From: a virus
Virus record (IMG/VR): IMGVR_UViG_3300047471_000189
Location: 1-64,000 of that record
Length of the DNA stretch: 64,000 nucleotides
Reading direction: 5' to 3' (one strand)
Shown: positions 39,356-60,603 of the stretch, in pieces
Position numbering within the stretch: the stretch's first letter is position 1
Layout: each line of letters starts with the position of its first letter
Made by a program: the position numbers and the translations under genes
The notes under the pieces: generated by a model
Told to the model about the DNA's origin: nothing
Database searches by the model: none
The model's input: the letters and a program-made list of their open reading frames with translations, nothing else

Positions 39356-42300
39356 TCACTTCTCCTGATCGAACCCGCCGAATAACGACAAGCTCAACAA
39401 CTCATTTTTAACTGTGTCCGATCCCCAGTTCACCATGACCTGAAGGTGACGGCACTTGGCCGGTAGCTGGGTCTGAGATACATAGAACCGTTGGGCATAG
39501 GTGCTGACGCTGGGTTCGAGTTCTGTCGGGTCTTGAACGTACAAGGTGAGAGGTTCAAAGTAGCTGACCGAGGTTATGTTCACAGACAGTGCCTGACCTG
39601 TTCCTCCGGTAGTAGCCAGAGCCGTTCCTGTAGCTGGGTATCCTTCTCCGGGAAGGAGTAAGGAAAGTCCAGTTACTGGACCGGTGGGTCCTCCGGATAC
39701 GCTCGTAACTTTCGCAAGCCCGCCGGTTCCTCCGGGATAAACCACGGCGACTATGTCTCCGACGGTGTATCCGGCTCCAGCGTTGTTAGGAGTTATGAAA
39801 TTGATTCCGAAATACGGAGCGATTTCATCTAGCTGGATAGCAAGAGAAATTGGAGTTCCGATAGCTTTGGAGTCCGAGGTGAAGCTTTCAATCGTACCCA
39901 ACTGGCCGGGCTGCGCGATAACGATGCTGCCAAGGGTGGCCCACGCCGGGTAAGCAGAACCGTTGTCCGTAGAAACCGTGTAGTCCCTCTTCAAGATCGG
40001 GCCGCTGGTCTGTGGTCCGAGCAGAAGTTCGTGCGTACCCGGAAGAACTTCGATGGATTGTACAGCGGAGAACCCGCCAACGATCTGGGCTTTGGGGCTC
40101 CATGTTGTGCCGGTTTCGGGAGACGGTGTGGGAGTCATCCTCCACCAAACTCCGTTGAAGTCCGAAACGTATAATCCCTTATCCTGTGATCCAGCGACGT
40201 GCCAAGATATAAAAGTGCTGGACGGAGTAAAGGTTCCCGTGCCGAGGCCGGGCCCAAATTGATCGCCTATTGGAAACCCGATTTCGGATACACCCGAGCT
40301 TGGGTCCAACGTGAGGACCTGATTGTCGGATGAGTACAGGTATACGATGCTTCCGTTGACAGAAAAGGCGTCGTAGGAAACGAGCCCGATGTCTGTCAGG
40401 AACGGAGCAGAGAAGAACGCGCTTGTTGGTGTTCCTAACCCCTGAATGATGAAGATATCAGAGATCGTAAACACGAGCAGCCCGGAGGATGTTGGGAACA
40501 ACCTCGTCACCGTTTCCGGGAACGCGAATACGTTCGACGCAGACCAAGCTTCGTTTCCATTTCCGGCGGTTACATCCGGACCGGTAGAGAAGTAGACAAG
40601 GTTGTTGACTGCTCCCCAGATTCTTCCGAGGTGGTAAGTTAATGCCAGTAGTCCGGTCGGAGGGGGGTCGTTGATTCCGTCGATAGGAGCTTCGATGAGT
40701 TCATTAAGTCCGGTATCGGGAGTAGTATCCGTGTATGTCCACGTCGCTCCGCCACCGGGGTTCGGAATTTCATCTAGGAAGAAGAGGACCGATCCACCCT
40801 GTACCGTTCTCCAGATTACAATTGTGTCGATCTGTGTCGCAGAAGACCCGGCACCTTGGATAATGGCTAGGTTATCGGCACTGACGAGAATCGGAGCGCT
40901 TTCTTGACTTGCTGTCCCAATGTGCCCAGTAATGCTGTTTTTGTAACTGTAGGCATAGATCCACGCCCCAGTGTTTGCTTCTCCGAAAGGACCAGAGTTC
41001 AACCACAGTTCTGTGCTGTCCGTGGTGTAGGCACCAACAGCGGTAGCCCATGTCGGAGCCGTGGTTCCGCTTTCTCCGAGAATGGTGGTTTTCTCGACGG
41101 CGTTGTTAGAATCGAGAATAGCTGTGGCAAGACTTAGAGTCTGGGTGCTGCCGGGCCACGGGGATAAGGAAGGACCGCTCTGGTTTACCCACACCACTGT
41201 GTTGTCAATAGTGGTGGTCCCAACTCCGTTGGTCCAGTTCGGAAACGTGGTTCCGCTGGTTCCACCAATCGTGCATTGGAATAAGCAGTCTACCGTGACT
41301 GCTTGCTGAAAAGTTACAAAGACCGGGTTCCCAAACTCATCTGTCCCATTTTGTTCAGACGTGGTGATGTAGTAAGTGAAGGTAACCGCAAGTATGTCCC
41401 CGGCCACATAAGTATGACCCGTCAACCATGTCCCGGGACCGATACATGACCAAGTGACGTCCCCGTCGGCAGTAGTTCCCCCGATGATGGTGTTCCAAGT
41501 AGGAGCGGAACCGCCGGTCTGGTGAGGAGCACTTCCTGTAGAGATAAGTTTCTGGAGGTTGCTGTTCGAATCCAGAATAACGAACAACGGAGCATACCAC
41601 GTGCTGGCTCCCCACGCCGGGTAAACGGCAGGAGACGGGGCCTGTGTAACGGTAGGCGTTACAGTGGGAGTAGGTATTCCCCACGGTTCGACCTGTGATC
41701 CGAGGTTCTCCCATTGCGCCCCGCCGTCTTGAGTTATCGCATGAAGAACGGTCGACCACGTCGGTTGTGCGGCACCGGTAGTCCCGCTGCCCGTTGTGAT
41801 CTGGCCGGTCTCTGCGGCAAACGCTTGAGTCCCGCCGTTAGCAAATTGAACCTGCTGGCTATTTGAGTTTCCTGTCGAAGTCTGAGTCGTTCCATTTAAA
41901 GCAGGAACTGTAGTTAAACCAGACAGGGTGACCTTAGTTCCAACCGGAATTTCAAGAGAAGTACCGGTCCCCAAGAAAATCGTGGCTGTTCCGGAAGCGA
42001 TCTGTATGTCGGCAATGTTGCCTGTTTGGCTCCCGATGTTTAGCTGCAAATTCCCGTTGGGGTCTACGATGTACTGACCAGAGGTAAATGCCGTGTTGGC
42101 TTTCCAGATTAGTGGACTTTCTATAAGCTGGTTGGTAGACACTCCGTCCGAGAAGTAGAGAGTGTTTCCTACTCCCTGAAAGCTGGTGACCTTCGCGTCA
42201 GGGTTCTTGTTCCACAGAATCTGATTTGTGCTCGGTCCCGTTACATCTCGGACCGTGCCGCCTAATCCCGGGATAGGAGTAATAACCGCCTGCCCGGTAT

Positions 42301-42928
42301 CCGGGCTAGTGAAGAAGTTAAAGGTCCCGAACTGGAACATCGCCTGATTAGCGCCGAGAGTTATCCCAGAACCAGACGGAGGGGTTGTCGGGCCGAGGAC
42401 CTGTCCATTAAGGGCGGTGTAATTCGTCAGCCCGGAGAAGCTGTAGGTCTGACCAGAGACCGTTGCCGGTACGTTGGTCGAGAAGGTTACGATGGCAAAA
42501 TACCGGAAGATCGGCTGATGTAACGGGGTGTATCCGATAACCAGTCTGAGACTCTCCGTGGCCGTGACTAACCGGGTGCCATGCGGAGCAGCGGTTCCTT
42601 GGACATCAGCGATAACTCTGATCTGCTCTTGGTTGTTGATGACCGGGCTGAAGGCGTAGTACCGATTGATGCCGGGGAAAGTCTGGTTGTTGTAGACAGA
42701 GGTTCCCGGTCTCCGGATGAAGGTTAGCTTCGTGGAGATTTCAGAGTTGAGACCAGAAATGGCCGTGTCTGCCCGAGACCCGTAGTACTCTGCCTCGATG
42801 TGTGGGGCATTACCACGCAGCGGGTTTCTCTGGGTAACCACACCGTCGTAGAAGGTGTCGATCCAGAGAACTCCGTAGCGGGTTGGCTTAGAGGGTTGTG
42901 CCCCTTTTTTGGCAAGCTCGTTTGGCAC
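39356..42928 (-). CDS. tail nozzle/stabilisation protein with inserted Trp-rich repeats
   Basis: RRPGT N-terminus, GNTLYFSDG, YHLGRIWG..VYFS propeller motifs; about 4 G.TG..P.W.T..G.T.D...W repeats. Confidence 0.6.
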   Translation of the reverse strand: MPNELAKKGAQPSKPTRYGVLWIDTFYDGVVTQRNPLRGNAPHIEAEYYGSRADTAISGLNSEISTKLTFIRRPGTSVYNNQTFPGINRYYAFSPVINNQEQIRVIADVQGTAAPHGTRLVTATESLRLVIGYTPLHQPIFRYFAIVTFSTNVPATVSGQTYSFSGLTNYTALNGQVLGPTTPPSGSGITLGANQAMFQFGTFNFFTSPDTGQAVITPIPGLGGTVRDVTGPSTNQILWNKNPDAKVTSFQGVGNTLYFSDGVSTNQLIESPLIWKANTAFTSGQYIVDPNGNLQLNIGSQTGNIADIQIASGTATIFLGTGTSLEIPVGTKVTLSGLTTVPALNGTTQTSTGNSNSQQVQFANGGTQAFAAETGQITTGSGTTGAAQPTWSTVLHAITQDGGAQWENLGSQVEPWGIPTPTVTPTVTQAPSPAVYPAWGASTWYAPLFVILDSNSNLQKLISTGSAPHQTGGSAPTWNTIIGGTTADGDVTWSCIGPGTWLTGHTYVAGDILAVTFTYYITTSEQNGTDEFGNPVFVTFQQAVTVDCLFQCTIGGTSGTTFPNWTNGVGTTTIDNTVVWVNQSGPSLSPWPGSTQTLSLATAILDSNNAVEKTTILGESGTTAPTWATAVGAYTTDSTELWLNSGPFGEANTGAWIYAYSYKNSITGHIGTASQESAPILVSADNLAIIQGAGSSATQIDTIVIWRTVQGGSVLFFLDEIPNPGGGATWTYTDTTPDTGLNELIEAPIDGINDPPPTGLLALTYHLGRIWGAVNNLVYFSTGPDVTAGNGNEAWSASNVFAFPETVTRLFPTSSGLLVFTISDIFIIQGLGTPTSAFFSAPFLTDIGLVSYDAFSVNGSIVYLYSSDNQVLTLDPSSGVSEIGFPIGDQFGPGLGTGTFTPSSTFISWHVAGSQDKGLYVSDFNGVWWRMTPTPSPETGTTWSPKAQIVGGFSAVQSIEVLPGTHELLLGPQTSGPILKRDYTVSTDNGSAYPAWATLGSIVIAQPGQLGTIESFTSDSKAIGTPISLAIQLDEIAPYFGINFITPNNAGAGYTVGDIVAVVYPGGTGGLAKVTSVSGGPTGPVTGLSLLLPGEGYPATGTALATTGGTGQALSVNITSVSYFEPLTLYVQDPTELEPSVSTYAQRFYVSQTQLPAKCRHLQVMVNWGSDTVKNELLSLSLFGGFDQEK

Positions 42929-42944: not shown

Positions 42945-44036
42945 TTATCCGTTGAAGGGCCCGGGTCCGTAAGGCCACGCGGCCCCGATACCTTGCCAGT
43001 TAGCTGTCCAGCTTCCGTCGATACCCATTGCTCCGCGTTCCGGAGTCATGCGAAATTCTTCCTGCTGCCGGTCGGCACCACGGACGGATTTCATGAGTTG
43101 TTCTTCCCACTCTAGGTAAGACGCCTGTGCGTCCTTGGCTCCGTTGAAAGCCTTGAGCGCGGCCCGGCAGCCCTGCCGGAAAGTAAAGAACATGCTCTGT
43201 GGGATCGGGTCCAGAGACTGCTGTAGCGTAGCCACAACAGGGGGAAGCATTTGATACCGAGGAACAATCCACCAGCAGAGGCCGTTCAGAGCCGGGACAG
43301 GGGATAGCCGGAACCCATAACCGTTGGGGTCGGCAACTGTCCAGATTACGGTGTTGTCCTGAATTCTAGTTCCCGGGGTAGATTGTGGGGGAGCGGCTGG
43401 CTCGGTAGCCCCAGAGATACCGTAAGGAGAAAATCCGGGCGGTATGATCGTGGTCCCTGTGTACCCCGGAGACTCGATAGTCAAACCCAGTTGGGTCGAG
43501 TCAAGGAACAGAATGTTTCCGTTCACGTCGATAAACTGTTGTATAGGGGTCCGAGGAGTCATCGACACACCGTACCCACTGGAGTATTCGGTGTTCGGCT
43601 GCCACTGTCCCATGATTGCAAAGTTATTCTGGATGAAGCAGATTTGGAGAGGGACGCTTTGTGCCGATACCTGCGGAATGTCTCTGACGGTTTCTACGAC
43701 GAACGTCGGCTTTGGGGCCCCATTGTTATTGGACGTAGAGTTGTTGATGTCGACCCGCCACGCATCCTCCAACCACCCTATGTCTGTGAGGTTAGTGACA
43801 TAATCCTGCTGCAAGCTGGACGTGAGAAACGGTGGAGCAACTTTCCGGTTCCACTTCCACGGCATGTTCTCATCGAGAACCCGTTGCATCACCTCGTTCA
43901 CAATGGTGAGCATCGGCTCAGTGCTGTATCCAGCAGCACCTCCGAGAACATTATAGAATTCCGGATTGGCCTTTAGCTGGTTCGCGATCTGCTGACCAGT
44001 TAAGGAGTAAGCGTGATTTCCGGGGATTAAAGGCAT
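42945..44036 (-). CDS. head-tail adaptor-like protein
   Basis: V.Q.VL...PWKWNR, T...QDY, GWLE.A shared with 55009-55722. Confidence 0.55.
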   Translation of the reverse strand: MPLIPGNHAYSLTGQQIANQLKANPEFYNVLGGAAGYSTEPMLTIVNEVMQRVLDENMPWKWNRKVAPPFLTSSLQQDYVTNLTDIGWLEDAWRVDINNSTSNNNGAPKPTFVVETVRDIPQVSAQSVPLQICFIQNNFAIMGQWQPNTEYSSGYGVSMTPRTPIQQFIDVNGNILFLDSTQLGLTIESPGYTGTTIIPPGFSPYGISGATEPAAPPQSTPGTRIQDNTVIWTVADPNGYGFRLSPVPALNGLCWWIVPRYQMLPPVVATLQQSLDPIPQSMFFTFRQGCRAALKAFNGAKDAQASYLEWEEQLMKSVRGADRQQEEFRMTPERGAMGIDGSWTANWQGIGAAWPYGPGPFNG

Positions 44037-44063: not shown

Positions 44064-45314
44064 TTAGTTAGAGGCCCAGCAGGTCGTCGCGAGTGCCGCT
44101 ATAGTGCGACCAGCGTCTTGTCGGCTATCAATGTTATAGGAAAAAGTGGTGGTCGTTTGTGCGCTGATGTTAATCGCAAACCCACCCCGGTTCCCGATAG
44201 TTCCTCCGCCAGACCAAGTTCCTACCTGACACCACATGTAGTAAGTAGCGGGAAGTGTAGCTCCCCATGCTTGGGTAGCTTCGCATCCTTCTCCAGCGTT
44301 TCCGTCATCGACTACCGTGCAGGAAGTGAAAGTAACTTTCCCTATAATCGTAGTGGTAGGTCCTGTAGGGTAAGTAATCGCAACAGCGGTCTGGGCAGTT
44401 GTGCGACCCTTACCGTCGGTAGTTACCTGACACACATGGGTAGCATCTCCGCACGATCCCGGTGACCCGTTCACTGTGTTGAGGGTAAGGGGCTGCACTC
44501 CTCCGCCGCTTGGAGTAGTTGCGTCTCCGCCGCCGTTGATCTGTGTGATTCCGGCAGACGCCGACCCGCAGTTAGCTGCTCCTGACACCGCGATTCCTGT
44601 AGCGAATTGTCCACCCGGGCATTGTGCCGGAGTGGTGGCTAGAGCCGTAGCGGTTGCTGCGAGAGTGGCTGTGCCTGCGTTTCCTGAAGTGTTCGCGGCG
44701 TTGTCCGGGATGTCTGCACTTACTAACCCACGGATAGCAAGAGCCGCCGACCCTCCGGATGCTGGCCCGGCCAGTACCGTGTTTGCCGCAGCGGAAGACC
44801 CGGCTAAAATATTCGTCCAAGCTCCGGGGGCGGTTTGTGCTCCGGTTCCACCTTGGAGAATAGTAGCGAAATTCTCTCCACTTATGGTAGTTCCACCGGC
44901 TGCATAATACGCAAGTTGACCGGTAGTTCCGGGGTTGATTAACCCGGTTGTGGTGCTACTGACGACACAGACATTCGGAATCACTATCCCGCCCGCGCTC
45001 GGGTAGGAGATGGTTTCCGTTACGCAGTACCCCAACGGGATGTAGTAGTCGTAGTTACCGCCTTCGTCTGCGGTCACGACGGACGGGATAATCGGGGCTG
45101 TTAATAACGGGTCCGAGTATATCGTGGCTGCCATATCGGTCGCGGTGGAGGTGACGGCAACTGTTGAGTACGGTTGAATCACAGCTTCCACCCCGGACGA
45201 CCCGCGAGCTAAGACCTGTCCGACACGGTGATACCCGATGGTAACCTGACCATCGCTGTGTGCAGCGATAGCCAAGGCCATCAGTGTGCCGGAAATTATA
45301 TGAACTAATTTCAT
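44064..45314 (-). CDS. tail fibre-like protein with signal peptide
   Basis: MKLVHIISGTLMALAIAAHSDG|Q; ATIY.DP...TAD..GNY.YY domain; GGTGA.TA and VTTDGKGRTT fibre repeats. Confidence 0.65.
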   Translation of the reverse strand: MKLVHIISGTLMALAIAAHSDGQVTIGYHRVGQVLARGSSGVEAVIQPYSTVAVTSTATDMAATIYSDPLLTAPIIPSVVTADEGGNYDYYIPLGYCVTETISYPSAGGIVIPNVCVVSSTTTGLINPGTTGQLAYYAAGGTTISGENFATILQGGTGAQTAPGAWTNILAGSSAAANTVLAGPASGGSAALAIRGLVSADIPDNAANTSGNAGTATLAATATALATTPAQCPGGQFATGIAVSGAANCGSASAGITQINGGGDATTPSGGGVQPLTLNTVNGSPGSCGDATHVCQVTTDGKGRTTAQTAVAITYPTGPTTTIIGKVTFTSCTVVDDGNAGEGCEATQAWGATLPATYYMWCQVGTWSGGGTIGNRGGFAINISAQTTTTFSYNIDSRQDAGRTIAALATTCWASN

Positions 45315-45323
45315 CCTAACTCC

Positions 45324-48300
45324 TTATCGCAAAACCGAACCTTTGAAGTGTCCACCGTGTCCCTTAGAACCGTGGGTTGTCGGGTTCGTCACAGTGAGTC
45401 CAGTTGAACCGGATACACTTGACGAGGTAGCCATGATCGTCGTGCTACCTGCCAGAACGCCTGTGGCTAATCCCCCTGCCGAGATCGTGGCGATGCTTGT
45501 GAAGGTGCTGGACCACGTAACAGTTGATGTGCAATTTGTTGTGGTCGAATCGGACCAGTGGCAAGTTGCGGTGTACTGCTTCGTCGACCCCACAACAACC
45601 GAGGTACCGGCTGGGGTCACGACGATGCTGGTTAGGGTCGGCGGGATATTGATCGTATACAACGAACTTCCCACAGAGCTATTCGTAAACCCTGACGCAG
45701 AGGCTATCGCCTTGACTGTCTGGGTCGTCGAGACGGTGAGAGGGGAAGAGTAGACCGTCGATCCTGTTGTTGGGGTCGATCCGTTGGTTGTGTAATAAAT
45801 GGTAGATGCAGGCGTGGTATCGGAGAGCGCCACTGTCTGGGTAGACGTGTACGTTCCGGCGTTCGGGCTGGTCACTGGCGTAGCGACAACCGGAGCGTTG
45901 ATTGTATAGGCTGCGCTGCCTGCGGTGGAATCTTGGAATCCTGTTCCGCCAGCGACAGCATACAGAGTTTCACTGGCCGCAACGGAAACAGGTGCGGTGT
46001 ATTTGGTACCGGTTGTACAGCCGGTTGCTCCATCAGTTGCCGGAGACCCGGTCGTGTTGTAGCAGATTACAGATCCCGACGTAGTCGAGATCGTTACCGT
46101 CTGTGTTCCGGTGTAGGTTCCCGCAACAGGAGAGAAGGTTGGGGTAACTGCTATTGGGGCCGTGGAGGCCGTGAAAGACGCCTGATCGAGATTGATAAAA
46201 TACGTCTGTGAACCGCTTGGCGTATTCGCGTCCATCTGAAACTGGAAGCCGTTACCCGACGTCCACCCCATTGGAAGCACGCCTGAGTTCGTCGTGATCC
46301 CGAGGTTATGCACGGTCCCGTTCAAAACGAACGTGTCGTACACCTGACTATTTCCTACCCTGTGATCGGTAGTTGTGATGTGGTTCCACCCTATTAACGG
46401 TGCCTGCGTCACACCTGAGTCAATCCACTGTATTGTGGCCTGATCCCATGCGTCCCACGAATTATGGCCACCCGGACATCCTGCGCCGTTGTAGCAGTAC
46501 TGCCAGCCGAACATGTACTCCCGATTCAAACCGACCGAGAACAGGAAGGCAGTGTCTAACTCCAAGGCACCAAGATTCGAAGTGGAAGGAAGATATACTT
46601 CAAAATCGGATGCAAAGTTTGTGCAAAGGTCGCAAACTGGAGCGAGCCAGTAGAATAGAACATTGGTGTCTGGTTGGTTTGCGACCATACTCATTTGCAT
46701 GGACGACCCAGACAAGGAGGGTGAAGCGTTTCTGATAGTCTGATTGGTTGAGACGGGGATTCCTGTTCCCCCGGGATCGCATCCCGGTTTGATGCAGGTG
46801 TTCCAGCCAGTAAGTGAATTCCACAAGCCGGGCAAGTTAATCGTGTAAGCGGCACTTCCGACAGAGCTAGTCACAAACCCGGCTGCGGTAGCGATAGCCT
46901 TCACTGTGGTGTTGGAATTCAGGGTGATTGCTCCCGAATAGACAGTTGACCCGGTCGTGGGGGTTGAGCCGTCCAGAGTGTAGTAGATTGTCGAGCTTGG
47001 GGTTGTATCAGAGATTGTTACTGTCTGAATGCTCGTGTAGGTTCCAGCAGTCGGGGAGAAGGTCGGAGTTGCAACAGTCGGAGTGGAGTTATCTACTGCT
47101 CCAATGATGCCTCCGGTCGAACTGGTCACTACTGTGGATCTGGCCGTAGCGTAGTGCGTGTTCGCGTTGAATTGAAAACGCACCGGCATGTTCGCCGCAC
47201 CACCGCTCAGCCCAGTACCGCTCTGCGGGGAAACCGGCACATAAGTTCCCGTGGTAAATGGCTGGCTTGCGGTCGATATGAAGTTGCCCGAGGATAACCC
47301 TGTTATGTGATTATTGATTGGCGTGACTGAGGTAAAGAGGGGAAGATCACTCCTTGTGCTTTCCCACCCGCTGTTCAGATTGCAGGCGCTTGATGGAGAG
47401 ATCGGCGTCGTGATATTCATCAAAGAGCCAGCCGCAACGACGTTGGTTGTGAAATCACTAACGAACGTCTCAGTACTATTCCAGCAGGCGCTTGTTCCCG
47501 GTGTTTGCCAGATAATATTATTCTGCGCCATGACGCGGGGGTACTCGAAGGGAGTCCCGCCGCCATTGTCGTTCGTGTCCAGAATCCCCGAACCAAGAAA
47601 CGTGCCGGTGAAGCTCAATGTGTTGTTGTAGAAGTAGAGATTGCCGGGACGTGCTGCTCCGTAGGGACCGTGATCGCCTATAAAGTGGACCCCGAAAAGA
47701 GCGGTTGAGTTCTGGATGATGTTGCCATAGATATGATAGGTGTGAAACTGATCGTACCAAGCGGTCATCAGGTCCATCGTCATGATGTTGCCCTGCGCCC
47801 ATCCATTAGGGATGTAGTTGTACGCTCCCATATATTGCGGGGAATCTTGGTTATCTACGGCATCGATCACTCGCTGCGGACTGTTCGGGGTTCCTCCGGC
47901 ACCATCGCCAAAATAGTTGTACCGAACGATTGTCCCTACGCCTCGATCCTTTAGATTGATTCCTCCAGAGTTGAAAAGCATCTTGTCGATGACGTTGAAT
48001 TGGACAAGCTGCAACCAGCCTTGCAGGTAGAACTGATGGATGCTTCCGTTGCCGCTGACGCCGGTTCCGTGGACGTGGTTACCTTCATAATCGGTGTTCT
48101 GAACCAGCGCCCAGCCGTTATTGGTATTGAAGTCGGAGAAGATTCCAAAGTCGCTGTTTGAAACATCGTTCCCACGGATGACCGTATCCATACTGGGCCA
48201 CACGCGAAGCCCGGATGTTGCCAGCGCCCAATTCGCTACCGTCCCACCCGGGGCCGTGTGACTCACAGAGGATGAGGCATTCTTGATCGCCAATCCTTCA

Positions 48301-50276
48301 AGGATCAAATACTGCGGTCCTGTCCACGGTCCGGGAGCATAGTTGCCCCACCAGTTTGTTGAGTAATTTCCGCCAACCGATACCGCCGCATATTGCTCAA
48401 TTGTGTAAGCAAAGGATGTGCTGATGGCTGGAGTAGCGTTTTGGCCGTCAATGACCGGAAGGTTTCCCGCAGAATCAGGAACACCGCAAACACGAATTGG
48501 CTGTGTTCTGGTTCCGGTTCCGCTGAACGGGAAGTATTCGTGATAGGTGGTCGGACTCGACCCGCTTAAATCTTCATTGTGAATGCGGACTGTAGAACCG
48601 GCGGTGAGCGCGGTCCACGGAACGGACGTAATAGTATGATAAGTCGCTTGCGTCGGTCCTACGTCATAGACAGTTCCTGTTGAACTTGGGTCGGCGGTGC
48701 AGTCCACCGGCATTGTCTGCGAGGGTGTTACCGGATACGGGAGAGCGTGGCCTGTAACATAAAGAGTAGCCGTCTGAGTCTTGGTTCCGTCAGCCACACT
48801 CGTCGCCAATACCGTATAGCGACCAGCAACCGTAGCGGAGAACACCGTATCTCTGTTTGTAATATCGCTGAGAATACCGTCCCCTCCCCCCGGCTGCGAA
48901 GTGATTGCCCAAGTCACGGCTTGGTTACTATTACCGAGAACCCATGTCTGTAAGTCGACTTTTTGGTTAGCGTACAGGGCTTCATAGAACGGGGTTACAA
49001 TTACCTGAGTGCTTGGCTGACACACATCGATTGGAAAATCTACAGTCTTGCTTGTATCGTCCACGCTCTGTGCCCTGATCGTCACAATGGCAGTAGAGGT
49101 TGCCGTATAGGTGACGTTGCCGCTGCCAGAGCCGGGAGATACGGAACAGGTTCCCGGCGTCGAGCCAACGGTGACATCCACCCACGGAAAGGTATTTGCC
49201 GTAGCGGACAATGTGGCGGAGGCTCCGCCTGTTGTCGAGGCTACACTCCAGTTCACCTTATTGGTCGTTCCGTTGGTGATCGTCGCGTAGATACGCCGCA
49301 CATCACCCGGAAGAACCTGCCAGCCATATTGGGATTGGTTCGCAGTGATAGCAACGGCTGGGGGAGGGGTTCCCTGCGTATACGACCACGAGTTAATAAG
49401 CACCGCACCGGCATTGCCTGCCGAGACGGTAGAAGCAGTGATGCCTGCGAGGGCTGTATTACTTCCGCCTACGATGGACGGGATGTTGACTCCTGTCCAA
49501 GTATGGGTAAAGCAGGAAGGTCCCGGACATGTCCCGCCAGCCGTCACGTCGAACAGGTTCTCAATAAGATTCGATCCGTCATAGGTGATCGTTACCGAGT
49601 AGACGTGGCCGGTGGTTGTGTTGAACTGAGTAGCTGGGGAGTTCAGCGGAACGGGATTAGTAACAAAGCTAGCGTAAGACCGATAACCGGGGTCGCCATC
49701 ATTTGGGTGGCATGGATCATAGCCAGACGTATAGAGGTTAGTCGTGCTGTAGGTAAATCCGTTGGCAAAGGGACCGTTGGCAACCGGGTCCACGTTGTTG
49801 AACCCGTCCATCGTTATGGCAAAGACGTTGTTCAGGTAAGTACCGGATAGGGTCACGTTCGGAGCCTGATAGAACCCGCCTTCGCAGCCAGCGCCGTTGA
49901 AGAACCCGATCCCCTGATAGCCGGGTTGATTGTTGGTGTTCTGGAGCACGAAGGCCAGCGTATTACCGCTGGGAATGAAGGTGTAGGTTGTCGAGAATGC
50001 CTGCACGTTGACCGGGGTCGTGAAGTTGGCAGACATTGCAGTGTGAGAACTATGCGCGGGTGCTAACTGCACTTGGCCTGAGCCGGTAATGCTGGTGGTG
50101 GTAGTACTGTTGAGCTTGAAGTTGTTCGCGCCCAGCGTGTTGTTGCTGCCTGATGCCCCGCAGGTGCCAGCACCTGAATTGAACGCGGAACAGTTAAAGA
50201 TAGTCTGTCCGTGGCTATGAGCAGCGATTGCTAAAGCAAGAAGGCCGCCAGAAAGAATGCGAATGATTTTCATCAT
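45324..50276 (-). CDS. 1650-aa secreted multidomain adhesin/receptor-binding-like protein
   Basis: Signal peptide; lectin-like domain, Ig-like domains, beta-helix, three ATP.FSP.AGTY...TVT...IYYT.DG..PT (CHB_HEX_C-type) repeats, C-terminal BIG2-like domain. Confidence 0.7.
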   Translation of the reverse strand: MMKIIRILSGGLLALAIAAHSHGQTIFNCSAFNSGAGTCGASGSNNTLGANNFKLNSTTTTSITGSGQVQLAPAHSSHTAMSANFTTPVNVQAFSTTYTFIPSGNTLAFVLQNTNNQPGYQGIGFFNGAGCEGGFYQAPNVTLSGTYLNNVFAITMDGFNNVDPVANGPFANGFTYSTTNLYTSGYDPCHPNDGDPGYRSYASFVTNPVPLNSPATQFNTTTGHVYSVTITYDGSNLIENLFDVTAGGTCPGPSCFTHTWTGVNIPSIVGGSNTALAGITASTVSAGNAGAVLINSWSYTQGTPPPAVAITANQSQYGWQVLPGDVRRIYATITNGTTNKVNWSVASTTGGASATLSATANTFPWVDVTVGSTPGTCSVSPGSGSGNVTYTATSTAIVTIRAQSVDDTSKTVDFPIDVCQPSTQVIVTPFYEALYANQKVDLQTWVLGNSNQAVTWAITSQPGGGDGILSDITNRDTVFSATVAGRYTVLATSVADGTKTQTATLYVTGHALPYPVTPSQTMPVDCTADPSSTGTVYDVGPTQATYHTITSVPWTALTAGSTVRIHNEDLSGSSPTTYHEYFPFSGTGTRTQPIRVCGVPDSAGNLPVIDGQNATPAISTSFAYTIEQYAAVSVGGNYSTNWWGNYAPGPWTGPQYLILEGLAIKNASSSVSHTAPGGTVANWALATSGLRVWPSMDTVIRGNDVSNSDFGIFSDFNTNNGWALVQNTDYEGNHVHGTGVSGNGSIHQFYLQGWLQLVQFNVIDKMLFNSGGINLKDRGVGTIVRYNYFGDGAGGTPNSPQRVIDAVDNQDSPQYMGAYNYIPNGWAQGNIMTMDLMTAWYDQFHTYHIYGNIIQNSTALFGVHFIGDHGPYGAARPGNLYFYNNTLSFTGTFLGSGILDTNDNGGGTPFEYPRVMAQNNIIWQTPGTSACWNSTETFVSDFTTNVVAAGSLMNITTPISPSSACNLNSGWESTRSDLPLFTSVTPINNHITGLSSGNFISTASQPFTTGTYVPVSPQSGTGLSGGAANMPVRFQFNANTHYATARSTVVTSSTGGIIGAVDNSTPTVATPTFSPTAGTYTSIQTVTISDTTPSSTIYYTLDGSTPTTGSTVYSGAITLNSNTTVKAIATAAGFVTSSVGSAAYTINLPGLWNSLTGWNTCIKPGCDPGGTGIPVSTNQTIRNASPSLSGSSMQMSMVANQPDTNVLFYWLAPVCDLCTNFASDFEVYLPSTSNLGALELDTAFLFSVGLNREYMFGWQYCYNGAGCPGGHNSWDAWDQATIQWIDSGVTQAPLIGWNHITTTDHRVGNSQVYDTFVLNGTVHNLGITTNSGVLPMGWTSGNGFQFQMDANTPSGSQTYFINLDQASFTASTAPIAVTPTFSPVAGTYTGTQTVTISTTSGSVICYNTTGSPATDGATGCTTGTKYTAPVSVAASETLYAVAGGTGFQDSTAGSAAYTINAPVVATPVTSPNAGTYTSTQTVALSDTTPASTIYYTTNGSTPTTGSTVYSSPLTVSTTQTVKAIASASGFTNSSVGSSLYTINIPPTLTSIVVTPAGTSVVVGSTKQYTATCHWSDSTTTNCTSTVTWSSTFTSIATISAGGLATGVLAGSTTIMATSSSVSGSTGLTVTNPTTHGSKGHGGHFKGSVLR

Positions 50277-50280
50277 GCTC

Positions 50281-51075
50281 CTAAGAGATTCCGTACTTGG
50301 TTCGGAAGTACGCTTCGTTCTGTTGTACCTGTGGGAGGGTGAGGGCCGACTGGTAGACGATCAACTCCACAAATTTGCCAGCAAATAAGGCAGTACCAGT
50401 AGCGTTACCATCTCCGCCAATAACAGTAGGGCCACCAATTAGACCGCCACCGGCAGCGGACGTACTAACATCCACCGCACTTGCCATTCGAAAGTTAGTA
50501 GAAGTGCTCTGTATCCATGTAACGTTGGTCTGCGTAAACGTGTTTGCTGTGGCATGAGTCACACCTACGGCTACTAGATGGTCATCTTGTCCGGAATAAC
50601 TATTGAAATTGAGATCTGTTGCCTCACCGAATGCCGGACCCAAATAGCCGGAGCCAATCACATACCCCGATGAGGTACTAGGTGGAATGCTAAAGACAAA
50701 GAATACTGTCTGCTGACTTATACAGCACCCGCTCGGAGGAACTGTAAAAGCCAACGCCCCCCAGCAACTACTAAAGGTGACGGCTGGCAGGCCGTTCACT
50801 TGGTTGGTGTTGAATGTGCAAGTGCCGTGATTCAGGGTGGCATCGTTGGCGTTGCCGCTTCTATCAGCCCAAGCAGTGATGTTAGTACCGTTGCTCGGGG
50901 TCCCGCATACGCTGCTGGGATATGTGATGCAATCAGAAGATAACCATAGAGCCATCCCGGCCACTGGGCCTGAAGCGGCAGCGGTAACCGTGCGGTGATT
51001 TCCGGTACTGATAACCTGCCCGCCGTTGGCAGCGAGCAGAGGAATAAGAGCGAGGAGCACTAGTAATTTCTTCAT
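50281..51075 (-). CDS. secreted LamG/ConA-like lectin-domain protein
   Basis: True start MKKLLVLLALIPLLAANGGQ at 51075 (TAATG overlap); LWL..D, W.DRSGN.NDA, NGLPAV.F, G...E.IVY..AL, Y...KYGI. Confidence 0.7.
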   Translation of the reverse strand: MKKLLVLLALIPLLAANGGQVISTGNHRTVTAAASGPVAGMALWLSSDCITYPSSVCGTPSNGTNITAWADRSGNANDATLNHGTCTFNTNQVNGLPAVTFSSCWGALAFTVPPSGCCISQQTVFFVFSIPPSTSSGYVIGSGYLGPAFGEATDLNFNSYSGQDDHLVAVGVTHATANTFTQTNVTWIQSTSTNFRMASAVDVSTSAAGGGLIGGPTVIGGDGNATGTALFAGKFVELIVYQSALTLPQVQQNEAYFRTKYGIS

Positions 51076-54000
51076 TAGTATGTTCCCTGAACAACCCAAG
51101 TTGCTTGCTTCGAGGTTCCGTCTGCGACGAAAGTAAATTTGATATAATCTCCATTCGTCAACGCTACATTTCCGCTCTGTGACGCTGTAGCGAATGAACT
51201 TGTACAAGTTACTGCGCCCGTCAGAAGTGCCCCAAGCGTGTTCCCTGCCGCGTTCATCGTCGAGGTTCCAGAGTTGTCGGTGAAGCATTGCAGACCAGTG
51301 AGTGTAACCGTCGACCCGGTTGTGTTCTTACAGGTCGACTGGAGATAGGTTCCCGCTGTGATTGCGTTCAAGCCGTCACCAAGACCCGGCTGGCAAGACC
51401 ATTGACGTGTTCCGCCCACTACAGCCGCATCGACATAAGCTGTCGTCGCAACCTTAGTGGAGTTATCCGCCGGAGATTGAGTCGTTGCCGTCGTTCCGTT
51501 AGGGATTGCGTTTGTGCCGCTAACAGCAGTCCCGGTTCCAGCGTAATAAGCTATCTGGTTTGCTGTTCCGCTATTGACGGTACCGCTTCCACCTCCGCCT
51601 GTGCATCCGATATTCGTCAAGCCACCGTGAGTTCCGTTAAAACAGGCAGGGTTTGGGCTTGCGGAGGTCGCAATACTCGGGATCGTAAACTCGCCGCTAG
51701 CATAAGCTCGAAACACATCGGTAGACCCACCATACGGACGAACCATATAGTAGTTGTTGGTAGACGTCGAACTCGTGTAATTGAAGCCGTGACAGAAGGC
51801 GTTGTTGTTTCCTGTATCCCGCCCAAGGCAATCCCCGAACCAGTCACCAGATGCTAGGGTAGAATTCCACTCTCGGATTAGCGTTGGTGGTCCGCCTGTT
51901 GTTGAATGCGAGTAAATGTCCATGCCAAGGAACCCGCCCGCGTTCGCTTGCCACGCCATGAAATTAAACCAGTTGGAATCGAACCATAATCTCGCAGCCG
52001 GAGCGTATACGCTCTGAACATCGGCACCGAGGCCGCTTGCTGAATACGAGAAGGTATCCGCAGGTTGGATCGGTAGCCCTCCCTTAGCAGCGAAAGCTTC
52101 GTTAACCGTTTGCGCCCAAATTACATCTGCATGGGGGTCCGGTAGCGATGGGGTGTTATCTGCGACATGCAGTAGAGCCCTAGCCGTGTCCGCGTAATAG
52201 TCGATGTACTGACCGTTCGACACCATCGTCGCGTTCTTGCCCATGTACTGGGTCCACATGAAGTAGTTCACTTGACCGGGCTTAACGTCTGCTCCGGTGA
52301 GGCCGTACTGGGCAGGAACGATGGTCGTTTCTAACACCTTCATTCCAGCCGTATGAGCCGCAGCCCAGAGTGTCTGCTTGTCGGCCTCTACTTGAGTTGA
52401 GCTTCTTCCGCCAAGAAAGTCGTTCTGGCCGGTCTGATCGATCAGGAACATGGGTGACGCGCTGATGCTGGCAACCCAAGTTGCCAGATTTGCTGCGGCA
52501 GCCTGAGTGGTTGTTTCAAACCCGTAGATAGTCCCGTGACCGTAAATATAAGATTGCTTTCCAAACTGCCATATACCCCACAACGATGCGTCGTAGGTAG
52601 TGCCGGTGCAAGGGGAGCAAGTGTAGGTTAAAGTGGTCGGGGTCGTGAAAGTAATCTGTGTTGACGAAGGGACGGTGGTGACTTGGAAAGATCCATACTG
52701 GGCAGCCTGCTGAACTGATCCGATGATACCGGCGGGCCAACTAGCCAAATTGGACATATCGACTGCATCCCCTATGGACAGACTATGTGCAGAACCGTAG
52801 GTGACGGTGCAGGTTGAAGTGGAGGTATGAACGCAACTTACGCTGGACGGAACACCAAGCGAACGACTGTTCTGTGCGTTTGCATCGTCGTAAAGCCCAG
52901 AGAATGACGTAACCACATAAGCCGTTGTAATCGGGTTGTACTGAACTCCGCTTGATCCTCCTGCGGTGGTAAGATCGATGTCATTTGTGGTTGTGCTGAC
53001 CGTGACGCTTGCGTCAGATGAATGAATTGTGACTGCTGGTCCGGTCTGGGAATTGATGCTTGTAATGCCGCCTCCGCCTCCTCCACCAAACGGGGCTTCT
53101 GCTACTCCGTTTTCTGAGTGAACGAGTTGGTGCGTAACCGCATCGCAGCGGATGTAATCGACCCCAGCAGCCGGAACTCCGGCAGTAGAGGATTCATCAC
53201 AAGAAAATCCGTGGGCCCCTGAAGGGAGAGCGGCGTCTGCGGCTGGCGATACCGTGCCTGCTGTTAGAGAAGGCGCTGTGACAGCTTCAGAACACGCAAC
53301 GGTTGTGCCGTTGTCGGTGCAGGCCGAAGCGGCGTGGCTCCCTGCCGTAGACCCAACCATCTGCATCTGACCAGCGGTCCCGACCGTGGGACTACCGCTT
53401 CCTCCACTCCCGTACGGCACCCAAGCGGTTCCATTACTCTGGCAAAGATGAGATGTGGACCCGGTGCCTGCTGCGCAATCCAAGGCGTCAACGGCGTTAT
53501 CGACGGCGATAATTGCGTACGGCCATGAGGTAGCGGGAGGAAGTTCCTGAATCCATCTTGACTGCAATCCCTTGCCCCAGAAGTTCGCGTTCGGATCAAT
53601 CGAAAGCCCCTCGGTCGCGCTATATAAGAGCGGGACATTGACCGGAATGAAGCCGGGAGATGAAACAGGAGATCCTGTGTAATAGAGGAACAACCTCACG
53701 CCATTAACGGTGGTATCGCTTGCTCCCCTGAAGTCGCCTGACATGGCAATCGATGTGAGAACCTGTGTTGTATCGACGTTGGCTCCTGTCAGACTGACCA
53801 GTTGGCCGGTGGCCGGTACGGATTCAAACTCTTCTGAGGAGATGGGGAATAAACTTCCGCCCGTTGCTCCGGTGGCCGTTGCCGTTGCGCTGAAAGCCGC
53901 GACGTTATAGGTAGACGCGCTTAAACAGCCATCAGCTACGGGCAAGATACCGTGATTGGCACCAACCGCAGCAGCATAAACCGCCGTGATTCTACCGGGA

Positions 54001-55007
54001 GAGGCTGCTAGATCGGGATACTGGGCTTCGAGCGCCCCCGTAAAGGTCCATGTCGCGGTACCGCTAGAGCCGAAGGAGCAATACGACCCAGATGCCATAT
54101 CCGCAGAAGTCAAGTCACCCGTCACGGTGACAGCGGGAGCATCAGTCTTCGAGAATCCTGTCGGGGTAAGAATGACGTACTGACCGGAAATAGGGGGCTG
54201 GATGAACTGTCCTATCCCGCTGGTAACATCTACGTCGGCAGTTTCAATTCCTCCGCTGGGGTTTCGGAACCGAACGGTGGGGCTGTCCTGAAAATCAAGT
54301 AAAACCTGACTGGTGTTGTCAATCTCGTCCGTCTGTAAGTTCACACTTGGGTTGGCCGAGATGACCCCAGCAACGCAATTCGTGGTCGTGCCGTCACACT
54401 GCGCGGCTCCCTTGGACGAATTGGTCGCATTGGGAACAGTCGCTGATTCGATTCCCCCACTGGGGTTCGTGAACTTAACCGTAGCCGTATCTTTGAAGTT
54501 GAGGATGGTTTGTAGAGCGTTATCGACATCGTTGGTTTGAATCTCTGCGCCGGTAGTGTTAGAAAACGTACAAGTGTTTCCTGTGCAACTTACATTTGCC
54601 CCAGTGAAAGTAAACGGACCGGAAACAGAGTTTATGCTGGAAACGATAGCTCCTCCGGCTCCGGCCAGAGAGCATATGTTAATAGTCGTAAAGTTCCCTG
54701 ATCCCGGGTATTGGACACGCTCGTTTACGCAGTATCCCAAGGGCATGTAATACGAGAAGTTACCGCTGGAGTCAGCCGTCACCATTCCCGTGGGGATCGG
54801 AATAGTCAGAAGAGGGTCCCGGTAGATGGTAGCCAACGCACCGGTAGCCGTCGACGTAACATAGATGTTCGCGTTGGGGACAACTACAGCCTCTGTCCCG
54901 GACGAACCACGGGCCACGACTTGGTTTACCCGGTGAAACCCGATGGTCACTTGTCCGAATAATGGACCAGCTATAAGAAGAAGTGCGGATAGAAGAAATT
55001 TCTTCAC
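51075..55007 (-). CDS. tailspike/fibre-like protein with signal peptide and SGNH-like domain
   Basis: MKKFLLSALLLIAGPLFG|Q; N-domain paralogous to 44064-45314; GQNDF and D.H motifs; TQ..ADNSTKVATTAYV fibre motif. Confidence 0.65.
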   Translation of the reverse strand: MKKFLLSALLLIAGPLFGQVTIGFHRVNQVVARGSSGTEAVVVPNANIYVTSTATGALATIYRDPLLTIPIPTGMVTADSSGNFSYYMPLGYCVNERVQYPGSGNFTTINICSLAGAGGAIVSSINSVSGPFTFTGANVSCTGNTCTFSNTTGAEIQTNDVDNALQTILNFKDTATVKFTNPSGGIESATVPNATNSSKGAAQCDGTTTNCVAGVISANPSVNLQTDEIDNTSQVLLDFQDSPTVRFRNPSGGIETADVDVTSGIGQFIQPPISGQYVILTPTGFSKTDAPAVTVTGDLTSADMASGSYCSFGSSGTATWTFTGALEAQYPDLAASPGRITAVYAAAVGANHGILPVADGCLSASTYNVAAFSATATATGATGGSLFPISSEEFESVPATGQLVSLTGANVDTTQVLTSIAMSGDFRGASDTTVNGVRLFLYYTGSPVSSPGFIPVNVPLLYSATEGLSIDPNANFWGKGLQSRWIQELPPATSWPYAIIAVDNAVDALDCAAGTGSTSHLCQSNGTAWVPYGSGGSGSPTVGTAGQMQMVGSTAGSHAASACTDNGTTVACSEAVTAPSLTAGTVSPAADAALPSGAHGFSCDESSTAGVPAAGVDYIRCDAVTHQLVHSENGVAEAPFGGGGGGGITSINSQTGPAVTIHSSDASVTVSTTTNDIDLTTAGGSSGVQYNPITTAYVVTSFSGLYDDANAQNSRSLGVPSSVSCVHTSTSTCTVTYGSAHSLSIGDAVDMSNLASWPAGIIGSVQQAAQYGSFQVTTVPSSTQITFTTPTTLTYTCSPCTGTTYDASLWGIWQFGKQSYIYGHGTIYGFETTTQAAAANLATWVASISASPMFLIDQTGQNDFLGGRSSTQVEADKQTLWAAAHTAGMKVLETTIVPAQYGLTGADVKPGQVNYFMWTQYMGKNATMVSNGQYIDYYADTARALLHVADNTPSLPDPHADVIWAQTVNEAFAAKGGLPIQPADTFSYSASGLGADVQSVYAPAARLWFDSNWFNFMAWQANAGGFLGMDIYSHSTTGGPPTLIREWNSTLASGDWFGDCLGRDTGNNNAFCHGFNYTSSTSTNNYYMVRPYGGSTDVFRAYASGEFTIPSIATSASPNPACFNGTHGGLTNIGCTGGGGSGTVNSGTANQIAYYAGTGTAVSGTNAIPNGTTATTQSPADNSTKVATTAYVDAAVVGGTRQWSCQPGLGDGLNAITAGTYLQSTCKNTTGSTVTLTGLQCFTDNSGTSTMNAAGNTLGALLTGAVTCTSSFATASQSGNVALTNGDYIKFTFVADGTSKQATWVVQGTY

Positions 55008-55008
55008 G

Positions 55009-55722
55009 TTAACCTCTGCCTCCCTGAATGGCGGCTAGTTGTCGGAGAGAATTCAGTTTGTCGGCGAGCCAAACATTCTTTTGGGACTGGCTCAAGCCCT
55101 GAGATTCCGTTGCCAAATCAGTCATGAATATCTGCATTGATGTCGTAAACCGGGGGTCGTTGCTGTACTCGAACGCTTTCGCTTGGAACCCCTCGTTATA
55201 CAGGTAGCTTAGATAATCCGGAATCGGGTTCCATGTCTGGTTAAGAGCAGTGAACAACGGAGCCGACTTCTGATAATCAACCACAACGTTGTAAATTTTG
55301 TCCGGAGCGGGAAAAACCCGGAAGGTTATGTTCCCCGAGTCGTCATCGTATTGGGCTGAAATTCTGGCTGGTTGATTGGGTAGGGGTTCTTCGCCTTTGA
55401 TTAACTCGACCTGTAACTCAAACGCAGCAAACCCGTCCCCGGGGAGGTAGGCCACAGCCTTCTCAATCCAACCAAACGTAGGCAGGTTGACGATGTAATC
55501 CGAAACCCCGATGTCGGTCGTAAACGTAGGAGTAGACGGTGTGGCCCCCACGCGGTTCCATCTCCACCCGCCTAAAGCAGGAGACAAGATCGTCTGCATC
55601 ACCCAGTCGGCGTTGGAAAACGCCGGGTCGTTCGCAGTATTAGCCGTGAACGTCAAGGGGGCGAGACGCTGGTATTGCTGGGCCAAGTTAATGGTCCGCT
55701 GTAACTGGATTGTGCTTGCCAT
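55009..55722 (-). CDS. head-tail adaptor/tail tubular-like protein
   Basis: WRWNR, GWIEKA, FRVFPAPDK.Y.V...YQK, IPDY pattern. Confidence 0.55.
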   Translation of the reverse strand: MASTIQLQRTINLAQQYQRLAPLTFTANTANDPAFSNADWVMQTILSPALGGWRWNRVGATPSTPTFTTDIGVSDYIVNLPTFGWIEKAVAYLPGDGFAAFELQVELIKGEEPLPNQPARISAQYDDDSGNITFRVFPAPDKIYNVVVDYQKSAPLFTALNQTWNPIPDYLSYLYNEGFQAKAFEYSNDPRFTTSMQIFMTDLATESQGLSQSQKNVWLADKLNSLRQLAAIQGGRG

Positions 55723-57783: not shown

Positions 57784-58794
57784 TTAGACCTTTTCGAGCA
57801 CGAACTCCCGAACCGTGATCGAGTTGGCCGGGGAGGCAAACCCGAACGTTACGGAAGCGAGGAAGGACAGATCAGCCAGAGCCAGAGCCGTTACTACGTT
57901 CGTTACCACGGTTGTGGTTGTGAAGTAGGAAGAGGAACCGGCTGCCAGATTCGAGCTATACCATCCCGACAGAATTCCCGATGCCGAGTCCCACTGTAGA
58001 ACAGCAGTGATCTCGAAATCGAACGTTCCGCCTGCGGTTGCAATCGACTGTGCGGCAATGGCCCCAATCGCGTGATCGTTGGCCAGAGTAGAGGACGTTC
58101 CCTGATAGAGCTTGAACCCTACCTGAGAGGTCCCTGCGGCTGGAAGAGCGCCTGCTGGGGTAATTGACCCATCATCTACGAACTGTAGAGTCGGGGCCGC
58201 AACGGTTGCCATGAACAGTTCGCCACCGGTTGTGCGCCCGTACACCTTGTACGAGGTAGCTCCGGTGACAGCGTGCCACTTGACCGTGACGGTGTTGATG
58301 TTGGTCCCCGGGGGGCCCGTGGTGATGCTGGTCTCGGTTGAGGCCAGAGAGGTTCCTCCCGAAGCGTTGACTGCCGCCACCCTGTAATAATAGGCAGTGG
58401 AGTCTAGGAGGGTTCCGCCGGTTGCCGCCGTCGTGAAGGTGTCGTTAACCGGAGCAGCTAACTGCGCTGCCGAGCTTCCGACGCCTGTGATACGAACTTT
58501 AAACGGGCGGCCATCCCATGTATCTGAGGTGAATTGGTCGTTTGATTCGCCGAACGGAAGGCCGTATTCACGTTGTGATCTTCCGGTAACGGCTTGGTTA
58601 GCGTTGATGTTCAGCTTCGAGGACGCGCCACGAATAGACCCGACCCGGGGAGCTACGACAAAAGCTGTCGCAGTCCCCGTATCGGTATTGACTACCAGAG
58701 CGGTCTCCGTAGCGGTCGCAACTGCCTGAGCAGAGAACTGATTGCGAGCCGAACTGTTTCCGGAGAAACCAGCTACACTGTTGGAGTTGCTCAT
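57784..58794 (-). CDS. probable virion structural protein, paralog of 58798-59484 with FN3-like insertion
   Basis: Shared QAVA.ATE.ALVVNTDTGTATA...GESNDQF.SD.W.GR.FK...TVREFV.EKV; insert YYYRVAAVNASG..V.W.AVTGATSYKVYGR. Confidence 0.6.
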   Translation of the reverse strand: MSNSNSVAGFSGNSSARNQFSAQAVATATETALVVNTDTGTATAFVVAPRVGSIRGASSKLNINANQAVTGRSQREYGLPFGESNDQFTSDTWDGRPFKVRITGVGSSAAQLAAPVNDTFTTAATGGTLLDSTAYYYRVAAVNASGGTSLASTETSITTGPPGTNINTVTVKWHAVTGATSYKVYGRTTGGELFMATVAAPTLQFVDDGSITPAGALPAAGTSQVGFKLYQGTSSTLANDHAIGAIAAQSIATAGGTFDFEITAVLQWDSASGILSGWYSSNLAAGSSSYFTTTTVVTNVVTALALADLSFLASVTFGFASPANSITVREFVLEKV

Positions 58795-60200: not shown

Positions 60201-60603
60201 CAACGGGTTCCTTTGGCTTGCGCGTTCTCTGGGGCTGGGGCGGTACGGGATCGGCGGGGGCGGGCGGAACATCAGGCTCCGTTTCGGGTACATGGCCGTC
60301 AGAAAACATCGTAGCGGTGGTTACGCTCGCGACCAGAGGACCCGAGTTCTTCGCAGGGGCTTCCTCGGGGGCCGGGTACTCAAACTGGAGGCCGTCAAGT
60401 TCTACGTCTAACTCAGCTTTGAGGTCGGCCAACTCTGGATGGTTAGCCAGAGAGGATTTGCGGACAACCAAGACCTCCACAGCTTGCCGACGGTAGTCGC
60501 GCTCGGCGCAATCGTTTCGGGCTATGTCTCGCAGGACGTAATCAGGAAGGAGTTTCAGGTGAGCGTGGTAGTCAAAGAATGGGTCTTTAAGGCGGTCGGT
60601 CAT
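60181..60603 (-). CDS. hypothetical protein
   Basis: 140-aa ORF with RBS GAGG. Confidence 0.55.
   Translation of the reverse strand: MTDRLKDPFFDYHAHLKLLPDYVLRDIARNDCAERDYRRQAVEVLVVRKSSLANHPELADLKAELDVELDGLQFEYPAPEEAPAKNSGPLVASVTTATMFSDGHVPETEPDVPPAPADPVPPQPQRTRKPKEPVDASPAE

Follow-up and report, generated by a model that had tools for sequence, protein, structure and literature searches.

Why should four consecutive genes that resemble the tail fiber or tailspike genes of a tailed phage each begin with a signal for export from the cell? The question is raised by positions 44,064 to 55,007 of the virus record IMGVR_UViG_3300047471_000189, a 78,229-bp linear IMG/VR sequence with a CheckV completeness of 71%. 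Bases 1-64000 of this record form the window that was analyzed (64,000 nucleotides), and coordinates beyond it are given as genome positions. The source DNA was found in one rhizosphere and one soil metagenome run, and no RNA run containing it was found among the public runs listed. The four genes encode proteins of 1310, 264, 1650 and 416 amino acids (aa). Our analysis suggests that these products are probably exported and oxidatively folded in the periplasm of the host, and, far more tentatively, that two of them are fibers that join the virion only at lysis.

The cassette lies on the minus strand between two adaptor-like genes. It is preceded by adaptor-like protein 1 (55009..55722, 237 aa), which has a weak Pfam SU10_adaptor match (E 3.2e-4, below the Pfam cut-off) and is the conserved first cassette gene in relatives. 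The 1310-aa fiber- or tailspike-like protein (51075..55007) consists of a leader (54954-55007), Gln19, an anchor-like N-domain (54636-54950) and a long Cys-rich body. The 264-aa protein (50281..51075) carries a leader (51019-51075) and then a concanavalin A/LamG-like lectin fold, and the 1650-aa multidomain protein (45324..50276) a leader (50208-50276) followed by a lectin-like N-region and further modules described below. The 416-aa tail fiber-like protein (44064..45314) is built of a leader (45249-45314), Gln23, an anchor-like N-domain (44940-45248), fiber repeats and a Cys-paired tip. Adaptor-like protein 2 (42945..44036, 363 aa), conserved in relatives, closes the cassette, and a 1190-aa protein without leader, a probable tail hub or nozzle (39356..42928), comes next here and in relatives. 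The adaptor-like proteins are paralogous (BLASTP 3e-7 and 6e-6, two collinear segments). For the 363-aa protein a PDB sequence search gave one insignificant match (E 0.19); for the 1190-aa protein it gave none, and a structural-feature match of the latter to the P22 gp10 family (0.89) is a lead only.

The starts of the four genes are credibly fixed by ribosome-binding sites or translational coupling. GGAGG/AGAGG stands ahead of the GTG start of the 1310-aa gene, which the stop of the adaptor gene abuts; the start of the 264-aa gene overlaps the stop of the upstream gene (TAATG); AGGAG precedes ATGATG at the 1650-aa gene; and AAGGAG lies 6 nt ahead of the ATG of the 416-aa gene. There is no room for an alternative upstream start at any of the four genes, and in-frame start codons at the boundary between leader and N-domain (the Q-A-T-T-G codons) are absent in most homologues. 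A leaderless isoform made from an internal start was also considered, as the 1310-aa gene has a GTG right after the Gln codon; it was dropped as a general mechanism because neither the 416-aa gene nor the majority of homologues offer a start codon at that point.

Each of the four proteins begins with an n-h-c leader of 18-23 residues that ends in Gly followed by Gln. Lys or Arg occurs within residues 2-6 in all four n-regions, and the core comprises 13-16 uncharged hydrophobic residues with a mean Kyte-Doolittle hydropathy of 2.1-3.0. Position -1 is Gly throughout, and position -3 is L, N, S and S, two canonical and two less usual residues. The four N-termini, read directly, contain neither a lipobox Cys at +1 nor a twin arginine. 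The leader of the 1650-aa protein resembles that of the 416-aa protein. A simple n-h-c test applied to all open reading frames (ORFs) of the 78-kb record flagged eight, six of them with Gln at +1. Besides the four cassette genes, these six include two genes outside the tail block: one, located upstream of the terminase gene, for a protein of 357 aa (genome 75587-76660, minus strand), and one for an early-region protein of about 169 aa without family match (window 20735-21244, plus strand), whose leader ends in ...AGA before Gln or ...GAQ before Gly. A run of four signal-bearing genes is far beyond chance. An earlier note on this DNA had described four consecutive genes between two adaptor-like genes, all beginning with Sec-type signal peptides, and had allowed that the true starts might lie downstream of the hydrophobic segment. 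The four minus-strand ORFs, their paralogous flanking genes and their n-h-c leaders bear out the first two claims, and the ribosome-binding sites and coupling place the starts ahead of the hydrophobic segments.

The leaders are retained in relatives as well. Every close homologue of the 416-aa protein has a leader of 16-22 residues with one or two Lys/Arg (13/13 aligned) and a hydrophobic core, and the Gln at the boundary is invariant among those aligned. The mean pairwise identity in this family is only 32% in the leader, compared with 66% over the first 100 residues after it. To cover more distant relatives, 1.8 billion proteins were searched with an N-domain profile, which yielded 309 clusters at the 50% identity level, and the following counts come from the best 150. 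A leader of at least 15 residues lies ahead of the N-domain in 141 of the 150 clusters, 134 of these 141 pass the n-h-c test, and Gln stands exactly at the boundary in 95 of them; in 108 it falls among the last four residues of the leader. The proteins range from 100 to 1843 aa, with the N-domain beginning at residue 18-27. For the proteins without N-domain, a leader is present in 16 of 17 homologues of the 264-aa protein and in both full-length orthologues of the 1650-aa protein. With their properties kept and their sequence drifting, the leaders look functional.

The cysteine content points in the same direction. The five large signal-bearing proteins (1310, 264, 1650, 416 and 357 aa) contain 26, 6, 22, 10 and 6 Cys, respectively, all even numbers, and the many closely paired Cys that the earlier note had remarked on in the cassette are borne out. 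Among the proteins without leader, the major head protein, the adaptor, a 558-aa protein and a 3286-aa protein have no Cys, the portal has one in 693 residues, and the 1190-aa nozzle-like protein has four. Of 120 relatives above 250 aa in length, 101 have an even Cys count in the mature protein, with a binomial p of about 1e-14, a value that overstates independence because the relatives are related rows. One clade of short N-domain paralogues lacks both the leader and the Cys pair. The association between leader and Cys pair among relatives gives a Fisher p of 3.5e-9, which is not independent evidence because the leaderless state arose once, as a single clade on the tree. Counted as one event, this leaderless and Cys-less clade goes in the direction that export predicts. 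Export followed by oxidative folding would account for several features together: leaders and boundary Gln are kept, Cys counts are even, and the cytoplasmic virion proteins hardly contain any Cys. These features and the leaderless paralogues give strong comparative support to the suggestion of export and periplasmic disulfide bonding made in the earlier note, and we consider this part of the proposal probable on the sequence evidence.

If the proteins are exported, what are they? The 1310- and 416-aa proteins have in common an all-beta N-domain of about 100 residues directly after the leader, which is 54% identical between the two. The N-domain HMM finds exactly these two copies among the phage proteins (E about 1e-46 each), so that the shared domain of the earlier note stands. 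The 1310-aa protein has no match in Pfam (E <= 1) or in a PDB sequence search. An esterase domain is not claimed for it: a GxND-like motif was seen by eye, and a GDSL match is sub-threshold and lies in an Acidobacteriales homologue. In the 416-aa family, fiber repeats follow the N-domain and the C-terminal tips are swapped among homologues, two of which have Pfam Gp53-like_C. The fiber repeat of the 416-aa protein (residues ~263-314) matches unrelated viral contigs, and relatives were instead found with an alignment-based scan. The 264-aa protein matches a PHROG annotated as virion structural protein (6.8e-9) and, by structure and features, Laminin_G_3 clusters that are mostly viral, and it has no match in a PDB sequence search. 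The 1650-aa protein combines a lectin-like region (~24-310), a module at 305-1036, three CHB_HEX_C/Fn3_assoc units and one Big_2, and in the PDB sequence search only Ig-like and CHB_HEX_C matches were obtained. Over about 730 aa, its module 305-1036 is 44-50% identical to a large Acidobacteria family of extracytoplasmic proteins. Several members are encoded on contigs of 150-900 kb, and the named ones come from Terracidiphilus, Acidobacteriaceae and Ca. Sulfotelmatobacter. Judged by these matches, the 1650-aa protein is a mosaic that holds captured host extracytoplasmic modules and probably binds glycans, with enzymatic activity unproven.

The fold of the N-domain was examined with a model of the domain (pLDDT 72), the AlphaFold2 model of the whole 416-aa protein being too poor (pLDDT 48.7). 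The best VIA-align matches are chains of the tail complexes of the cyanophages Pam1 (7eeq_A, Z 7.3) and Pan3 (9vyg_n, Z 6.9). The head-binding domain of P22 gp9 and Sf6 gp14N reach Z 5.2-5.6, tied with pilin and generic beta-sandwich chains (5-6). In BFVD, seven matches have E <= 1e-3 (down to 2e-4) and others lie just above; all are viral proteins of 200-1050 aa. Among the matches listed, those with a name are mostly tailspike-, fiber- or depolymerase-like, for example proteins of the right-handed beta-helix and pectate-lyase kinds, one EPS depolymerase, one tail fiber and one tail spike. A predicted complex of adaptor 1, adaptor 2 and three N-domains scored 0.07, without controls, and counts neither way. 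With moderate confidence, the modeled N-domain may be assigned to the anchors of the tailspike or fiber kind. The resemblance to virion-attachment domains of tailspikes proposed in the earlier note therefore gains moderate support from the fold searches, but generic beta-sandwiches score nearly as high.

The gene neighborhood of relatives bears on where the proteins act. The N-domain is carried by 22 IMG/VR loci, and where the region is covered, the gene order is an adaptor, one to four signal-bearing genes, an adaptor paralogue and a nozzle-like protein of about 1000 aa; the terminase, portal, adaptors and nozzle-like protein of these relatives have no leader. In three relatives (CheckV 89-98% complete), one signal-bearing N-domain fiber is the only large gene in the slot. 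In four relatives with the slot covered (CheckV 89-100%), a short leaderless N-domain copy without Cys pair lies between the adaptor gene and the signal-bearing fiber. Short leaderless copies, which consist of the N-domain alone in some relatives and of the N-domain plus a tip of about 64 residues in others, are located at L073:1143-1490, L074:2098-2634(-), L075:1962-2525(-) and L072:1846-2187(-), and also at L022:9971-10504 and L027:1778-2338. They may act as placeholders, docking partners or short fibers. The presence of leaderless copies in the same tail slot suggests that the partner of the N-domain can be reached from the cytoplasm, and the tail would be the simplest such partner. The position in the tail operon with coupling to the adaptor gene, the anchor-like fold, the swapped tips and the leaderless copies in the tail slot together make docking to the virion plausible.

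The host is probably an acidobacterium (Terriglobia). A pattern scan of 185,579 species representatives found a single cellular carrier of the N-domain, an Acidobacteriales metagenome-assembled genome (MAG), and a second carrier was found as one genome in a sample of 201 from the same order. The two cellular homologues, both with a leader, the N-domain and a fiber-like body, are a 796-aa protein of MAG MKSV01000006.1 (L035:9938-12328) and a 1148-aa protein of the acidobacterial genome G064 (L048:14810-18256). One of the two genes has metabolic genes as neighbors and a CHC2 primase-like gene at a distance of 7 kb; the other belongs to an integrase/resolvase island that also contains genes for a KAP NTPase and a BrxC-like ATPase, which look defense-related. 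These single-gene homologues could be surface fibers like the mosaic adhesive trimer (MAT) fibers discussed below, or cargo of satellites or islands. About 20 of the 201 genomes have open frames of 1600-3100 aa that match only the fiber-repeat part of the 416-aa family and represent large fiber-repeat proteins of Acidobacteria. None of our conclusions draws on the unpublished genome G089 from this sample. In 400 kb sampled from G064 (C1:1000001-1200000 and 2000001-2200000), the GC content is 55.5%; that of the phage is 51-59%. Gln is by far the commonest +1 residue in this sample (24 of 70 crude n-h-c candidates), and the same genome encodes a glutaminyl cyclase (Glu_cyclase_2, E 7.7e-95). The Gln at +1 of the phage proteins thus appears to fit the likely host's own secretory proteins. 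The Q-rule has been described as a Bacteroidetes habit, with no mention of Acidobacteria (Bochtler et al. 2018, PMC5837995).

We propose that the four genes form the host-recognition cassette of a podovirus-like soil phage. Their products would be made as preproteins and moved across the inner membrane by the host Sec system, signal peptidase I would cut before the Gln, which may cyclize to pyroglutamate, and the four proteins would fold in the periplasm, with disulfides forming between their paired cysteines. The 1310- and 416-aa proteins would be the tail fibers, each with a beta-sandwich at its new N-terminus as the anchor for the adaptor or nozzle. DNA-filled, fiberless particles would meet the exported fibers only when lysis merges the two compartments, and docking would take place then; the 264- and 1650-aa proteins may ride on the fibers or act free after release at lysis. 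Podovirus tailspikes such as that of P22 are known to bind finished heads in vitro. We infer export, cleavage and disulfide bonds with more assurance than docking after lysis, which is the weakest step. That the whole chain holds, including docking to the virion at or after lysis, is close to an even call with a slight lean toward doubt. A two-compartment build, in which a near-Cys-free head and tail core is made in the cytoplasm, exported disulfide-bonded fibers dock at lysis and leaderless copies serve as placeholders or partners, is offered tentatively, as an idea with somewhat less than an even chance.

How far do known systems match this proposal? The P22 gp9, Sf6 gp14 and Pam1/Pan3 tail proteins are alike in having an N-terminal beta domain of about 100 residues followed by variable fiber, enzyme or tip modules, and the tailspike genes of the P22/Sf6 type are also placed between adaptor and nozzle genes. 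However, these tailspikes lack a signal peptide and fold within the cytoplasm, whereas the cassette proteins have a cleavable-looking leader and paired Cys. The virion coat proteins pIII and pVIII of Ff filamentous phages are synthesized with signal peptides, and their assembly takes place outside the cytoplasm, but these phages are unrelated, tailless and extruded at the membrane without lysis. In the literature searched, we found no tailed phage in which a tail fiber or tailspike has a signal peptide.

Exported proteins of tailed phages include the signal-peptide endolysin Lys44 of Oenococcus phage fOg44, SAR endolysins and spanins (review PMC6116005). Like the proposed fibers, these are late phage proteins that are exported by the host Sec system before lysis and kept outside the cytoplasm until then, but they are small lysis proteins, not virion or receptor-binding proteins. 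Porphyromonas gingivalis phages encode signal-peptide proteins of unknown function that obey the Bacteroidetes Q-rule and have been read as envelope modifiers, with no tail parts named (Matrishin et al. 2023, PMC10367356). There too, the predicted cleavage exposes an N-terminal Gln that matches host secretory proteins; the difference is the Bacteroidota host, as cellular relatives of the present phage's proteins were found only in Acidobacteria. The layout is shared by the MAT fibers of Bdellovibrio bacteriovorus, which combine a signal peptide, a beta-rich N-domain of about 130 aa, a phage-fiber-like shaft and swapped tips (Caulton et al. 2024, PMC10769870). The likeness is one of layout only. 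The N-domain of the phage proteins has about 100 residues, and no S74 domain was found in a Pfam search of the window proteins. MAT fibers are encoded by chromosomal genes and displayed on the predator cell surface, whereas the cassette belongs to the tail operon of a phage, where adaptor paralogues flank it. To these systems, the present locus adds a probable link to an acidobacterial host, the match of Gln at +1 with that host, leaderless Cys-free paralogues of the putative anchor, and what appears to be a captured host extracytoplasmic protein.

Several observations weigh against the proposed scheme. The leader calls come from a simple test, and export, cleavage and disulfide bonds are all deduced from sequence. 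We know of no tailed phage that adds exported parts to its virion. The leaderless transition is single on the tree, so that the link between leader and Cys pair amounts to one event, not nine. The fold matches of the N-domain are middling (Z < 8), with generic beta-sandwiches nearly equal. The 264- and 1650-aa proteins have no anchor N-domain, and the latter is built of modules common to cellular Acidobacteria proteins. The cellular proteins with leader and N-domain are single chromosomal genes away from phage structural genes, and some relatives place the signal-bearing N-domain gene between terminase and portal, where it looks moron-like.

The main alternative is that the proteins are exported but never reach the virion. 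They would then be accessory proteins that work within or upon the infected cell's envelope, or free after lysis, where they might degrade or mask the exopolysaccharide or lipopolysaccharide receptor, with superinfection exclusion or the release and spread of progeny as possible roles, or serve adhesion, the N-domain anchoring them to the cell surface as has been proposed for MAT fibers. In this case the virion would bind its receptor through other parts, be it the short N-domain proteins without leader that relatives encode, the 1190-aa nozzle-like protein or a different component. The cellular homologues outside prophages, the close similarity of the 1650-aa protein to the Acidobacteria extracytoplasmic family, the two cassette proteins without anchor, the varying position of signal-bearing genes among relatives and the MAT precedent, with the same layout displayed on a cell surface (PMC10769870), all suit this alternative. 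It accounts less well for genes that sit within the tail operon and are translationally coupled to the adaptor gene, for an N-domain model that matches the anchor domains of phage tailspikes and fibers, for leaderless copies in the same tail slot of relatives, and for the swapping of C-terminal tips that is typical of virion receptor-binding proteins. In addition, the N-domain HMM found no leaderless copy in the 78-kb record. We regard a function away from the virion as possible, and as only somewhat less likely than the whole chain with docking.

A second alternative is that the hydrophobic N-termini do not serve, or do not mainly serve, Sec export. They might instead stay uncleaved as anchors, hold the fibers at the inner membrane as a device for assembly or timing, or be relics of captured host modules, and the fibers would assemble on virions in the cytoplasm as usual. 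To our knowledge, all studied tailed phages assemble their fibers in the cytoplasm; moreover, part of the cassette is clearly host-derived, and the cleavage of its leaders is itself a deduction here. Yet relics would decay, and the leader is kept in 141 of the 150 diverged clusters, with the boundary Gln in 95. The leaders, at 16-23 residues, have the usual length of cleavable ones, and their cores of 13-16 are too short to span the membrane. The even Cys counts in 101 of 120 relatives, set against the near-Cys-free cytoplasmic virion proteins, and the loss of the Cys pair in the one leaderless clade also speak against it, and this alternative is unlikely. An artefact, with true starts downstream or hydrophobic N-termini by chance, is scarcely credible given the ribosome-binding sites and coupling at the proposed starts, the lack of an in-frame start codon at the domain boundary in most homologues and the leaders conserved across the N-domain clusters.

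The remainder of the record completes the gene layout of a short-tailed (podovirus-like) phage. The late region, on the minus strand, encodes the large terminase subunit (genome 71008-73059), the portal (genome 68257-70338) and the major head protein (genome 64307-65290). Between the head and tail genes, on the same strand, lie genes for a Ro60/TROVE plus vWA protein (window 61835-63160) and a histidine phosphatase (window 59568-60293); an Rfam search of the window found no family, Y-RNA-like or other, and the window has no tRNAs. Two paralogous neighbors of 228 aa (window 58798-59484) and 336 aa (window 57784-58794), both on the minus strand, have similar N- and C-termini and no family match. 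Relatives keep versions of about 225-247 aa upstream of the adaptor, and these proteins could be head fibers or decoration proteins. The Cys-free 3286-aa protein (window 25523-35383, minus strand) contains DUF7178 and a phage-lytic-domain-like region that matches a PHROG endolysin family, and it is probably an ejected internal virion protein.

If the proposal is true, export and oxidative folding of the parts that recognize the host would represent a new assembly pathway, unlike the wholly cytoplasmic assembly assumed for tailed phages, and would show how phages in soil come by fibers that are very stable and rich in disulfides. Annotation pipelines that count a signal peptide against a virion protein would mislabel such fibers, and active receptor-binding proteins of this kind would need periplasmic expression. 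The habit of placing Gln at +1 of secretory proteins may extend beyond Bacteroidota. The finding also links the phage to Acidobacteria, for which cultured phages are scarce.

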